Assembly (NCBI RefSeq): GCF_030013595.1
Contig: NZ_CP122768.1
DNA: 64,000 nt
Direction: 5' to 3' (one strand)
Origin: Escherichia coli
Lineage (GTDB): Bacteria; Pseudomonadota; Gammaproteobacteria; Enterobacterales; Enterobacteriaceae
This document shows, piece by piece, positions 2,477-15,366 of this stretch (positions are counted from its first letter, which is position 1; each line of letters begins with the position of its first letter). The position numbers and the translations under genes were made by a program. Below the pieces are notes generated by a model. That model was not told the DNA's origin, made no database searches, and was given only the letters and a program-made list of their open reading frames with translations.

Positions 2477-3977
<1,501 letters not shown>

Positions 3978-4059
3978 TGTTGACTCCGAATGCTGGTTAT
4001 CTATCCAGTGTAACAGGCGGGGAGCGATTAAAAAAGAGGCGGGTTGATGACAAAGGTTA

Positions 4060-4170
4060 CACCGTCTGACGTGCTACGCCTGTCAGGCCTATTCGACTCC
4101 TGCAATATATTGAATTTGCATAGTTTTGTGGGGCGAATAAGGCGTTCACGCCGCATCCGGCGTGAACAAA
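4060..4170. repeat. REP/BIME-type palindromic repeat cluster in the cho–nadE spacer
   Basis: gcctgtcaggcc and ggcgttcacgccgcatccggcgtgaac palindromes typical of REP units; the overlapping 64-aa ORF is spurious. Confidence 0.5.
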
Positions 4171-4206
4171 GTACTCTTTTTCGCACAAACCAATATGTGC
4201 AAATTA

Positions 4207-5034
4207 TTACTTTTTCCAGAAATCATCGAAAACGGTAATTGGCGGACGGCGTTTATGTTCGGTTTTCAGATACCAGTTCTCTATTGTTCTGGCGACCTGT
4301 TCAGGTAGGTTTTTCCCTTCCAGATAGTCGTCAATATTGTCATAGGTCACGCCGAGTGCCACTTCATCTGGCAGAGAAGGGCGATCATCTTCCAGATCGG
4401 CCGTTGGGGCTTTCTTATAAAGGTGTTTCGGGCAACCTAATGCCGCCAGTAACTGTTTACCCTGGCGTTTGTTGAGACGATACAGCGGATTAATGTCCGT
4501 ACCGCCGTCACCATATTTAGTGAAGAATCCGGTAATGGCTTCTGCTGCATGATCGGTGCCCACCACGACACCGCTGGTCATACCCGCAATGCTATATTGT
4601 GCTTTCATCCGCTCACGCGCTTTTTCATTGCCACGGACAAAATCGCTCAGTTCAATGCCTGCTTCCCGCAATGCCTGCTCGCTGGCCAATACCGCGCCCT
4701 TGATATTAACGGTTAATACGCGATCCGGTTGAATAAAGGCAATGGCATCCTGGCAATCTTGTTCGTCGGCCTGAACACCATAGGGCAGGCGTACGGCAAT
4801 AAATTGCAGCGATTCGTTGCCGGTTTCCTGGCGCAGCTCATTAATCGCCATCTGGCACAGCTTTCCGGCAAGCGTGGAGTCCTGACCGCCGCTGATCCCG
4901 AGCACCAGTGATTTAATGAACGGATAAGTTTGCAGGTAGCTTTTCAGAAAATCGACACTACGACGAATTTCCTCTTCAGCATTAATCTGCGGTTTTGCGC
5001 CCAGCGCCTTTATTATTTGTTGTTGCAATGTCAT
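4207..5034 (-). CDS. nadE: NH3-dependent NAD+ synthetase
   Basis: 275-aa ORF with the PP-loop motif SGGQDS; recognised NadE. Confidence 0.95.
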
Positions 5035-5603: not shown

Positions 5604-5632
5604 GGAAACCGGCCATTGCGCCGGTTTTTTTT
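5604..5632 (+). terminator. intrinsic terminator after osmE
   Basis: aaaccggccattgcgccggtttttttt hairpin plus T-run. Confidence 0.6.
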
Positions 5633-5872
5633 GGCCTGAGTTCTTAATTATCTTCGCGAATTATTTGCCCGAAATGTGAAGAGGGTCATAACCGCAGGTC
5701 AAGGAGAGACAATTTATAAGGTCAAAGAAATACTATTGCTCAGGTCTATACCGTATACTCCTTTCAGCCACAAAAAAAGTCATGTTGGTTTCGCAAGTTA
5801 CCCAGAGCATGGAAGCAGGTTAAGGCTTGCGGAGTGTCTGGCTGACAGATAATCGTCGATGAGGGCAGTTTT

Positions 5873-8044: not shown

Positions 8045-8887
8045 ATGATGCAGCCAGTGATTAACGCGCCGGAAATTGCCACTGCCCGAGAACAGCAGTT
8101 GTTTAATGGCAAAAATTTCCATGTGTTTATCTATAACAAAACTGAGAGTATCAGCGGACTGCATCAGCACGACTATTATGAATTTACTCTGGTATTAACC
8201 GGGCGTTATTTCCAGGAGATTAACGGTAAGCGCGTGTTACTGGAACGGGGCGATTTTGTTTTTATTCCGTTAGGTTCGCACCATCAAAGTTTTTATGAGT
8301 TTGGTGCCACGCGCATATTGAACGTTGGGATCAGTAAACGCTTTTTTGAGCAGCATTACCTGCCGTTGTTGCCTTATTGCTTTGTCGCTTCACAGGTATA
8401 CCGGACCAATAACGCTTTTCTCACCTATGTGGAAACAGTGATTTCTTCATTGAATTTCCGCGAAACAGGGCTGGAAGAGTTTGTTGAGATGGTTACTTTT
8501 TATGTCATTAACCGTTTACGTCATTACCGCGAAGAACAGGTGATTGATGATGTACCGCAGTGGCTGAAAAGTACGGTAGAAAAGATGCATGATAAAGAGC
8601 AGTTTAGTGAATCGGCGCTGGAGAATATGGTGACGTTGTCAGCCAAATCACAGGAATATTTGACGCGGGCGACTCAACGATATTATGGCAAAACGCCAAT
8701 GCAGATTATTAATGAAATCCGTATTAATTTTGCCAAAAAACAACTGGAAATGACCAACTATTCAGTGACGGATATTGCGTTTGAGGCCGGTTATAGTAGC
8801 CCGAGTTTGTTTATTAAAACGTTTAAGAAATTAACGTCCTTTACGCCTAAGAGCTATCGTAAGAAATTGACTGAATTTAATCAGTAA
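8045..8887 (+). CDS. chbR: AraC-family dual regulator of the chb operon
   Basis: 280-aa ORF with C-terminal AraC-type HTH; recognised ChbR. Confidence 0.9.
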
Positions 8888-11160: not shown

Positions 11161-13422
11161 TTACGCCGGGATTTTGTCAATCTTAGGAATGCGTGACCAC
11201 ACGCGGTGTGCTGCCATCAGCGTTAACAGTTCATCCATAAAACTACCATCGGCGCTGTCAGCTTCCACAATCCCTTCTTCACCCTGGTCAGCGATCTTGA
11301 TTGTTGCTTTAAACTTGCGCGCGTCTCCTGCCAGCGCAATCGGTTTAAGGTGTTTGTAGGCTTCCATCAGGTAGTAGTTGGCATCGCCGTTGTCAGCGAT
11401 ATCCGCGATATTGCCGCAAGGGACAATAACCGCATCGACCGTCAGCGAAGGCGCTCCGGCAAAGGTAGCGGCTATAGGCAGCACCGTACCGTCATCCGCA
11501 GTCACTTCACCCATTCGGGAGTAGAGCAGTTTGGCATGAACGCCTTTGGCCTTCAGCGCCTTGAGAATGGTCAGAAGGTCTGCCGATCTCACTTCATCAT
11601 TAAGCAAAATCGCTACCACGCGACCTTTTACATCACCGTCAGGAATGGCGTACAGACTTAAGGATGGATCCTTTTTCAGACAGTTGACGTCCGGAGGCGG
11701 GGTGATATTCAGCTGGTCGTCCGTCAGCTCGATACCGAGATTTTTCGCCACCGCCTGGGCCAGAGTGAGATCAATATGCGCCAGCTGGTCAACAACGCGC
11801 TCACGAATATACGGACGAACTACTTTGCTTAACTCAAAACTGAAACCATCGACAATATGGCGCTGCTCGAATGGCGTCTGACTTAGCCAGAACAGACGCG
11901 GATGGGAATAATATTCGCCAAACGATGGGCTGCGCTCGCGAACTTTATTGCCTTCCACGCGCTCCTGGTATGATTCAAAACCGCCGCGTTTCGGCCCCGG
12001 CGGTGTTTCGCGCGGCCAGTTATCGTTGATCGAGTTCGGTTCATAATTCGCCGGGTTAGTGTCGATCCCCATACGATGCATGCCGTCACGCTGGAAATTA
12101 TGGTAAGGGCAGGTCGGGCGGTTAATCGGAATCTCATGGAAATTCGGCCCACCAAGACGACTGATTTGTGTATCGGTATAGGAGAACAAACGTCCCTGCA
12201 ACAGGGGATCGTTGGTGAAGTCCAGACCAGGAACAATATGACCTGGATGGAATGCTGCTTGTTCGTTTTCGGCAAAGAAGTTATCCGGATTGCGATTGAG
12301 CACCATTTTGCCGACACGCTGAACGGGCACCAGTTCTTCCGGGATAAGTTTAGTTGGATCAAGAAGGTCGAAGTCGAACTTAAATTCATCTTCCTCAGGA
12401 ATCAACTGGAAGCCCAGTTCGTATTCCGGAAAATCGCCTGCTTCAATCGCTTCCCACAACTCGCGGCGGTGGAAGTCCGGGTCACGTCCGGTTAGTTTTT
12501 GTGCTTCATCCCAAACGAGTGAGGCTTTACCTGCCAGTGGTTTCCAGTGGAAACGTACGAACGTTGCCTTCCCTTCGGCATTAATCAGGCGGAAGGTGTG
12601 AATACCGAAGCCTTCCATGGTGCGGTAACTGCGCGGGATCCCGCGATCCGACATCGCCCACATCACGTTGTGCAGAGTTTCAGGTTGCAGAGAAACATAA
12701 TCCCAGAAAGTATCGTGGGCGCTTTGCCCTTGTGGAATTGCCCAGTGTGGTTCTGGTTTTACCGCATGAACAAAATCAGGGAATTTATGCGCATCCTGGA
12801 TAAAGAAGATTGGCGTGTTATTGCCAACAAGGTCAAAAATACCCTCTTCGGTATAGAACTTGGTGGCAAAGCCACGGATATCACGCACGGTATCGGCAGA
12901 GCCAGCACCACCCTGAACGGTAGAGAACCTAACAAATACTGGGGTGATTTTGTTCGGATCTGAGAGGAAATCCGCTTTGGTGATATCGCTTAAGCTTTTA
13001 TATGGCTGGAAATAACCGTGAGCGGCTGATCCGCGTGCATGAACAATACGTTCCGGGATGCGCTCATGGTCAAAGTGAGTGATTTTCTCGCGCAGAATAA
13101 AATCTTCCAGCAGCGTTGGACCACGGTTACCGGCACGCAGTGAGTTTTGATCGTCGGCGATGCGTACGCCCTGATTAGTGGTCAGCGCATAATTTTCACT
13201 GCCTTTGCGTACGTCTTCCAGAGAATTAAGTTTTTCGTTACGCGTATCAGGGGCTTTCAGGCTACCTGGGGCGGTAGGTTGTGCACCTGGCGGTGTTGGT
13301 TCAGTCGCTGGACGATGAGATCCGTCCTCAGGTGCCAGTGAGTCCATCCCCGGTTTCGCTTCGCTGGAATCGTGTAGTGGTGACTGGTGCTGATGTGGGT
13401 TCTTTTCGTTATGTTGCGACAT
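11161..13422 (-). CDS. katE: catalase HPII
   Basis: 753-aa ORF; recognised KatE with catalase core motifs. Confidence 0.95.
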
Positions 13423-13625
13423 TGAACTCGTCTCCTTAATTTATTACTGAAAGGGCCGCTGTTTTGGTCAAAAAACCCTCTAACTATAGACCATCAGCCA
13501 GATCCCGCTTCGGAGACTATTCTGGAAACGGTGTTATGAAATACACGCAAAGCGGGACGTATGGGGGCTAGATCGGCTAAACTACAGTTTTTCTGATTTT
13601 TAATATGCGTTTAGTGAAGCCAGTA

Positions 13626-13868
13626 ATGAAGAAACCGCTCCGCCAGCAAAACCGCCAGATTATTAGCTATGTCCCACGCACGGAACCCGCGCCGCCAGAA
13701 CATGCGATAAAGATGGATTCGTTTCGTGATGTCTGGATGCTACGTGGCAAATATGTTGCGTTTGTACTGATGGGAGAGTCATTTCTGCGCTCACCGGCGT
13801 TTACTGTGCCTGAATCCGCCCAGCGTTGGGCAAATCAGATCCGCCAGGAAGGGGAAGTGACTGAGTAA
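13626..13868 (+). CDS. cedA: cell-division modulator CedA
   Basis: ORF 13605..13868; recognised CedA begins at the internal MKKPLRQQNRQ (80 aa). Confidence 0.8.
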   Translation: MKKPLRQQNRQIISYVPRTEPAPPEHAIKMDSFRDVWMLRGKYVAFVLMGESFLRSPAFTVPESAQRWANQIRQEGEVTE

Positions 13869-14028
13869 GGATTACGTACCTCCCGGTTCTGCCGGGAGTT
13901 ACATGGCCTGAAATTCTGTATTTCATTGCTACATTCATTCAAACCACCTGTAACAAAAAGCTGCCTTTGACGATCTATTGCTATAAATAAGTGAACTTTT
14001 TTCTTTAATTGTTTATTTATTTTAAAAT

Positions 14029-14037
14029 GGTTAAGTT
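14029..14037. repeat. left 9-bp target-site duplication of IS10 (GGTTAAGTT)
   Basis: Identical 9-mer directly abuts both IS10 termini. Confidence 0.85.
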
Positions 14038-14082
14038 CTGATGAATCCCCTAATGATTTTGGTAAAAATCATTAAGTTAAGG

Positions 14083-14152
14083 TGGATACACATCTTGTCA
14101 TATGATCAAATGGTTTCGCGAAAAATCAATAATCAGACAACAAGATGTGCGA
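14083..14152 (-). ncRNA. IS10 RNA-OUT antisense RNA (position inferred from the known IS10 map)
   Basis: In IS10, pOUT lies just inside the outside end and transcribes outward across the transposase translation start; coordinates derived from the element map, not from a read-off of promoter motifs. Confidence 0.4.
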
Positions 14153-15353
14153 ACTCGATATTTTACACGACTCTCTTTACCAATTCTGCCCCGAATTACA
14201 CTTAAAACGACTCAACAGCTTAACGTTGGCTTGCCACGCATTACTTGACTGTAAAACTCTCACTCTTACCGAACTTGGCCGTAACCTGCCAACCAAAGCG
14301 AGAACAAAACATAACATCAAACGAATCGACCGATTGTTAGGTAATCGTCACCTCCACAAAGAGCGACTCGCTGTATACCGTTGGCATGCTAGCTTTATCT
14401 GTTCGGGCAATACGATGCCCATTGTACTTGTTGACTGGTCTGATATTCGTGAGCAAAAACGACTTATGGTATTGCGAGCTTCAGTCGCACTACACGGTCG
14501 TTCTGTTACTCTTTATGAGAAAGCGTTCCCGCTTTCAGAGCAATGTTCAAAGAAAGCTCATGACCAATTTCTAGCCGACCTTGCGAGCATTCTACCGAGT
14601 AACACCACACCGCTCATTGTCAGTGATGCTGGCTTTAAAGTGCCATGGTATAAATCCGTTGAGAAGCTGGGTTGGTACTGGTTAAGTCGAGTAAGAGGAA
14701 AAGTACAATATGCAGACCTAGGAGCGGAAAACTGGAAACCTATCAGCAACTTACATGATATGTCATCTAGTCACTCAAAGACTTTAGGCTATAAGAGGCT
14801 GACTAAAAGCAATCCAATCTCATGCCAAATTCTATTGTATAAATCTCGCTCTAAAGGCCGAAAAAATCAGCGCTCGACACGGACTCATTGTCACCACCCG
14901 TCACCTAAAATCTACTCAGCGTCGGCAAAGGAGCCATGGGTTCTAGCAACTAACTTACCTGTTGAAATTCGAACACCCAAACAACTTGTTAATATCTATT
15001 CGAAGCGAATGCAGATTGAAGAAACCTTCCGAGACTTGAAAAGTCCTGCCTACGGACTAGGCCTACGCCATAGCCGAACGAGCAGCTCAGAGCGTTTTGA
15101 TATCATGCTGCTAATCGCCCTGATGCTTCAACTAACATGTTGGCTTGCGGGCGTTCATGCTCAGAAACAAGGTTGGGACAAGCACTTCCAGGCTAACACA
15201 GTCAGAAATCGAAACGTACTCTCAACAGTTCGCTTAGGCATGGAAGTTTTGCGGCATTCTGGCTACACAATAACAAGGGAAGACTTACTCGTGGCTGCAA
15301 CCCTACTAGCTCAAAATTTATTCACACATGGTTACGCTTTGGGGAAATTATGA
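14145..15353 (+). CDS. IS10 transposase
   Basis: 402-aa ORF MCELDILHDSLYQFCPELHLKRLNSL… recognised as the Tn10/IS10 transposase; ATG at element nt 108. Confidence 0.95.
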   Translation: MCELDILHDSLYQFCPELHLKRLNSLTLACHALLDCKTLTLTELGRNLPTKARTKHNIKRIDRLLGNRHLHKERLAVYRWHASFICSGNTMPIVLVDWSDIREQKRLMVLRASVALHGRSVTLYEKAFPLSEQCSKKAHDQFLADLASILPSNTTPLIVSDAGFKVPWYKSVEKLGWYWLSRVRGKVQYADLGAENWKPISNLHDMSSSHSKTLGYKRLTKSNPISCQILLYKSRSKGRKNQRSTRTHCHHPSPKIYSASAKEPWVLATNLPVEIRTPKQLVNIYSKRMQIEETFRDLKSPAYGLGLRHSRTSSSERFDIMLLIALMLQLTCWLAGVHAQKQGWDKHFQANTVRNRNVLSTVRLGMEVLRHSGYTITREDLLVAATLLAQNLFTHGYALGKL

Positions 15354-15366
15354 GGGGATCTCTCAG

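Follow-up and report, generated by a model that had tools for sequence, protein, structure and literature searches.

Does an IS10 element that has landed between cedA and ydjO in Escherichia coli change the expression of the genes on either side of it, in particular by sending an antisense transcript from its outward promoter pOUT into cedA? We addressed this question in a window of 64,000 nucleotides, the whole stretch of DNA that was analysed, in which a complete IS10 of the IS10-Right type (1,329 bp, plus strand, 14038..15366) lies between the two genes, with its outside end at 14038 toward cedA and its inside end at 15366 toward ydjO. The IS10 element was described in 1982-85, together with its promoters, the antisense RNA and the control by Dam, and the mechanism by which its outward promoters act has been on record since 1982-83. 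All of these properties are already known, and the location alone is new.

Identity and parts of the element

The element shares all of its 1,329 bases with the IS10 copies of E. coli BM28 and Br_112_kylling. Comparison with Tn10 of R100 gave 1,328 of 1,329 matching bases for IS10-Right (NC_002134.1, 43950..45278), the sole difference being a synonymous change at nt 203, against 16 differences for IS10-Left, and the element is therefore assigned to the active IS10-Right type. The transposase protein is the same as that of the Tn10 copy; what sets the copy in the window apart, besides the change at nt 203, is that it is solo and chromosomal, stands outside a composite Tn10 and occupies a new location. 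Over its first 202 bases the element has exactly the sequence on which IS10-Right was characterised by experiment, and this part contains the outside end, an IHF-like site, pIN, a Dam site, RNA-OUT, pOUT and the start of the transposase gene. Judged by its sequence, this is an ordinary intact copy of IS10-Right in which the control elements all have the wild-type sequence, and it is presumably competent for transposition. The 64-kb window contains neither a further copy of IS10 nor any other long repeat, and matches to the element occur in 3,172 plasmid records.

The element starts with CTGATGAATCCCCTAATG at the outside end and finishes with GGGGATCTCTCAG at the inside end. The imperfect terminal inverted repeats of about 23 bp by which IS10 is recognised are present at 14038..14060 (plus strand; the outside, transposase-binding end) and at 15344..15366 (plus strand; the inside end, which carries a second Dam site), and 17 of the 22 terminal bases are complementary between the two ends. 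A sequence resembling an IHF site, AATCATTAAGTTA, occupies IS10 nt 30-42 (14067..14079, plus strand) with one mismatch to WATCAANNNNTTR, and we take it to be the putative IHF site of the outside end. The DDE transposase gene (14145..15353, plus strand, 402 aa) is the sole open reading frame of the element. Its product scores 404 bits against the IS4 family transposase model NCBIfam NF033591 (cutoff 152); on the identical DNA of BM28 it is annotated as WP_001339197.1, and the transposase of the R100 IS10-Right carries the same accession.

Promoters and RNAs at the outside end

The antisense RNA of IS10, RNA-OUT, was found on the minus strand at 14083..14152 as a full-length match to Rfam model RF00240 (98.8 bits against a gathering score of 41, E = 1e-20), and, as expected, its fold is a long stem-loop (-23.9 kcal/mol, z = -4.9). 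Its 5' end is at 14152 (IS10 nt 115) and its 3' end at about 14084 (nt 47). RNA-OUT has been described as a 69-nt RNA with its 3' end at IS10 nt 47 (PMC5006887), which corresponds to window position 14084 and lies 46 nt inside the element. The start of pOUT is therefore placed at 14152, reading leftward to the outside end. Apart from RNA-OUT, the Rfam E-value search of 13000..16500 returned one sub-threshold snoRNA match, which we regard as chance. A -10-like hexamer, TAAAAT, with a 5/6 match stands 7 nt upstream of the RNA-OUT 5' end (14160..14165, minus strand). A looser hexamer scan gave no convincing pOUT -35 hexamer at a spacing of 16-18 bp, and a generic sigma-70 promoter scan detected neither pOUT nor pIN, so the assignment of both promoters rests on identity to the characterised IS10R.

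On the plus strand, pIN is assigned to 14101..14118, with its -10 region over the Dam site GATC at 14104..14107 and the start of RNA-IN at 14118 (IS10 nt 81). The candidate -10 hexamers are TATGAT (14101-14106) and TCAAAT (14106-14111), and an overlap of the Dam site with the pIN -10 is documented for IS10 (PMC5006887). RNA-IN and RNA-OUT are reported to overlap by 35 nt (PMC5006887); since the 5' end of RNA-OUT is at nt 115, RNA-IN must start at nt 81. Folding predicted that RNA-IN from 14118 is essentially unstructured. RNA that originates outside the element would behave in another way, as it contains a fold-back that pairs 14089-14098 with 14140-14149 and covers the AUG at 14145. Davis, Simons and Kleckner are said to have shown in 1985 that this fold-back keeps the transposase start codon inaccessible in RNA transcribed into the element from its flank.

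Two GATC sites, and only two, occur inside the element, at 14104..14107 and 15357..15360. According to Roberts et al. in 1985, a paper that PMC10073500 cites, the site at the inside end reportedly acts in the methylation control of inside-end activity. Most of what the initial annotation had read from this part of the element agrees with these results. It had the transposase ATG at 14145, which is IS10 nt 108, and it had recognised the Dam site of pIN at 14104..14107, which is a known IS10 site. The inside-end GATC that it reported is also present, one base to the right of the 15356..15359 that it gave. Its view that the outside end points toward cedA, with pOUT antisense to that gene, is borne out by RNA-OUT lying on the minus strand from 14152 to 14083 and cedA on the plus strand. 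The interval that it assigned to pOUT, 14038-14160, does include the start at 14152, but the -10 hexamer at 14165..14160 and the sequence upstream of it extend beyond the right edge.

Possible read-out across the two ends

cedA (13605..13868, plus strand) is intact and encodes 87 aa; it matches the CedA model NCBIfam NF007510 at 187 bits and is annotated as cedA in relatives. It converges on pOUT and runs in the same direction as the transposase gene. Between the outside end and the cedA stop codon lie 169 nt of spacer with 34% GC. The sole strong hairpin after cedA is a GC-rich one, CTCCCGG-TTCTG-CCGGGAG, at 13881..13899 (-17.2 kcal/mol on the plus strand and -17.6 kcal/mol on the minus strand); it has a U-tract on neither strand and was reported by neither of two terminator scans. 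A canonical intrinsic terminator thus seems to be missing from cedA, whose transcripts may normally continue into the spacer. Because the gene is co-directional with the transposase gene and the hairpin is devoid of a U-tract, cedA read-through may here enter IS10. The single terminator-like site that the generic scan gave, on the plus strand within the transposase gene (14405..14420), was taken as chance. The co-directional arrangement of cedA and the transposase gene was absent from the initial annotation, as were the outward promoters at the inside end that read toward ydjO.

On the minus strand, a terminator scan and a lenient search for a hairpin plus U-tract gave no credible intrinsic terminator between pOUT and cedA. 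The candidates of the lenient search along the read-out path were only AU-rich stems of 4-5 bp, which we do not consider credible. The sequence thus does not block antisense transcripts from reaching cedA. We infer from the literature that pOUT is active in this copy and that its read-out is leaky. A review that cites Simons et al. 1983 estimates outward transcription from pOUT at about 10% of lacUV5 (PMC9330008). In the mechanism that we propose, pOUT would fire leftward from 14152, and most of its transcripts would become the stable 69-nt RNA-OUT, whose 3' end at about 14084 is still within the element. A minority could cross the outside end at 14038 and, after at least 169 nt more, would be antisense to cedA.

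We consider it probable, at roughly 85%, that this is an ordinary IS10-Right copy whose pOUT output would go mostly into RNA-OUT and whose net effect on cedA and ydjO would be small or none, this last part being a prior expectation. Neither of the flanking coding sequences is touched by the insertion, nor are the hairpin after cedA and a predicted ydjO core promoter, and a small or absent net consequence is expected because these parts are intact. As a counterpoint, pOUT read-out elsewhere is strong enough for selection to have favoured it as the activator of otsBA and of acrEF. The insertions at otsBA in rpoS-null E. coli (PMC2744996) and at acrEF in Salmonella (via PMC9330008) involve the same element with its outside end facing the neighbour; IS10 with pOUT facing otsB was repeatedly selected because it restores otsBA expression (PMC2744996). 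At otsBA and acrEF the insertion was selected, and the promoter reads in the sense direction into a gene whose start is a few tens of bases off, whereas in the window pOUT faces the 3' end of the convergent cedA, 169 nt away.

An alternative is that the main consequence falls on ydjO and not on cedA, in that transcription from the inside end (from pIII and OUTIIp or by transposase read-through) or interruption of the spacer alters ydjO. A low-GC gene that is normally silent would then be raised or otherwise changed in its expression. We regard this reading as unlikely, though not negligible. ydjO (15495..16298, plus strand, 35% GC) is intact; it encodes 267 aa according to the annotation of relatives, and its reading frame is open from 15483. 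The promoters in question, pIII and OUTIIp, are placed near IS10 nt 1000-1230 in PMC11481808 (citing Simons 1983 and Martinez-Garcia 2003), which corresponds approximately to 15037..15267 on the plus strand, a position taken from the literature. PMC11481808 and PMC4574204 describe them as active and reading out over the inside end, which in this orientation is the sense direction into ydjO. A terminator scan found no terminator-like site between the transposase stop (15353) and ydjO. On the other hand, a looser scan of the pIII/OUTIIp region (15037..15267) found no consensus hexamer pair, and pIN is weak. pIII, too, has been described as weak, which counts against an effect on ydjO.

The spacer itself could contribute to such an effect. 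It comprises 13869..14037 and 15376..15494, has 32-34% GC and is divided by IS10 into pieces of 169 bp and 128 bp. Its K-12 counterpart is listed as a "promoter island" (PMC3661553) and as bound by both RpoD holoenzyme and H-NS (PMC3946193), and splitting such a region would favour a change in ydjO. The predicted core promoter of ydjO, however, is untouched. A sigma-70 promoter, ATGACT-16-AATAAT, is predicted at 15443..15470 (plus strand), 77 bp from the IS10 junction, as the sole promoter-like site that the scan gives in the region, and the same pair of hexamers is listed for ydjO in a K-12 RpoD genomic-SELEX study that flags the spacer as H-NS-bound (PMC3946193). Since this promoter lies between the inside end and ydjO, it stays attached to the gene, and only sequence further upstream has moved. 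The initial annotation, which held that the insertion displaces anything upstream of ydjO, was thus right about the distal upstream sequence but not about the predicted core promoter. It also argues against a consequence for ydjO that IS10 disrupts the gene in other strains with no obvious cost. As a separate observation, about 1,158 of the 5,423 E. coli genomes matched the empty-site query over its cedA part alone; ydjO and the adjoining spacer are thus a variable segment that was probably acquired horizontally.

That read-out from pOUT gives rise to a functional antisense RNA, or to convergent transcriptional interference, and thereby lowers cedA expression seems doubtful to us, and we would be surprised to see it. 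The geometry is correct and the path is free of intrinsic terminators, but 169 nt of 34% GC, reported as bound by H-NS in K-12 (PMC3946193, PMC3661553), would have to be crossed, and the hairpin of -17.6 kcal/mol lies ahead of the cedA stop codon. From about 13918 leftward, the read-out RNA is richer in C than in G (28-32% C vs 19-26% G), and this C-rich, untranslated RNA is a plausible Rho entry region, which would also work against an antisense effect. The read-out proposed by the initial annotation does have precedent, as transcription from pOUT over this same end is documented elsewhere (PMC2744996, PMC9330008), but the main product of the promoter, RNA-OUT, terminates inside IS10 (PMC5006887). 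What crossed the end would cover the 3' end of cedA first, far from the translation start. The closest parallel in concept is an antisense RNA driven by IS481 that attenuates fim2 in Bordetella pertussis (PMC11774165), where an outward IS promoter likewise yields RNA antisense to a neighbour. That case concerns another IS family and another organism and was demonstrated experimentally, whereas the case in the window is known from the geometry of the sequence alone.

The two effects could also be combined: pOUT would dampen CedA while the inside-end promoters or the disruption of an H-NS filament would de-silence ydjO, giving a selectable expression phenotype. Such a double rewiring strikes us as quite improbable, and if true, it would be a modest local case of a known principle.

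Origin and distribution of the insertion

The insertion is bounded by identical 9-mers, GGTTAAGTT, which form the left copy (14029..14037) and the right copy (15367..15375) of a target-site duplication. When IS10 and one GGTTAAGTT are deleted, the remaining sequence matches the cedA-ydjO spacer of E. coli HCP5S3_I2 at 294 of 294 positions. HCP5S3_I2, from pig faeces in the UK, is the closest relative, and its flanks are 99.9% identical to the window. Chance can be set aside, since the match to a characterised element is full-length and near-identical, the 9-bp duplication is perfect and the empty site is exact. IS10 would have moved by cut-and-paste transposition into the AT-rich spacer between cedA and ydjO, duplicating 9 bp of a sub-optimal target. 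Of the 6 specified positions in the symmetric IS10 consensus NGCTNAGCN, which the element prefers but does not require, this target agrees at 4, and the C-to-T changes are symmetric. Sub-optimal IS10 targets were used in documented cases (PMC2744996), and at the second core position the otsB target likewise carries T in the place of C (GTAAAGC in otsB, GTTAAGT in the window).

The IS10 junction of the window was found in none of the 5,426 complete E. coli genomes searched, and the uninterrupted cedA-ydjO site was found in 4,265 genomes. These counts fit a recent, strain-specific event. On the evidence of its flanks, the source is a wild E. coli and not K-12, only 7 genomes reaching at least 99% identity over the flank.

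Three full-coverage matches to the insertion were in fact IS10 copies at another site, within ydjO. In BM28 and Br_112_kylling, IS10 occupies 3346..4674 of each retrieved locus, which corresponds to about 16020 of the window, inside ydjO. The element is identical to that of the window and has the same orientation and neighbourhood, 645 bp further right; these copies break the coding sequence of ydjO, and the half-site that they use is better (TGCTTAAT...), whereas the copy in the window is intergenic. BM28 is a German laboratory derivative of K-12 and Br_112_kylling a Brazilian isolate; the two are unrelated, yet their IS10 copies share position and orientation, and the target duplications are TGCTTAATA and TGCTTAATG. 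This suggests independent hits on one IS10 hotspot, at the distance given above from the site used in the window.

HCP5S3_I2 differs from the window at several other places. A P2-like prophage lies immediately behind ihfA in HCP5S3_I2 (about 33408 of the window) and carries an IS10 copy of the IS10-Left type with 16 differences from the IS10 of the window; the window is without the prophage and runs directly into the core genes ppsA, fadK, selO and others. In the osmE/chbB interval (about 5626..5633), HCP5S3_I2 has an IS200/IS605-family element (tnpA) that is absent from the window. chbR (8045..8887, plus strand) is an intact open reading frame of 280 aa in the window and is annotated as frameshifted in the 99.9%-identical HCP5S3_I2. 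In the yniD/thrS interval, the window has an open reading frame of 632 aa (23628..25526, minus strand) whose counterpart in HCP5S3_I2 is annotated as the type III secretion effector EspL1; this EspL1-like frame points to EPEC/EHEC-like accessory content in the lineage.

An origin of the IS10 copy in assembly or cloning, such as a hop from a laboratory host while a library was built, is hardly credible. In its favour, IS10 is notorious for entering cloned DNA in Tn10-derived laboratory strains (PMC4574204, PMC2758499, PMC4021028), the laboratory strain BM28 has an identical copy and none of the 5,426 genomes searched shares the site. Against it, the perfect 9-bp duplication and precise boundaries mark a real transposition, wherever it took place, both chromosomes and plasmids of wild E. 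coli widely carry IS10, HCP5S3_I2 as the closest relative has it too, and modern assemblies involve no clone step.

Our reading remains that of an ordinary IS10-Right copy with probably little or no net effect on its neighbours. The insertion is at most a strain-specific marker, and it serves as a reminder that a solo IS10 carries promoters out of both ends. CedA has recently been described as a general transcription factor associated with the sigma-70 RNA polymerase (PMC10803263). If read-out from the element measurably changed cedA, the locus would offer, on a modest scale, a natural case in E. coli of antisense control driven by an IS.
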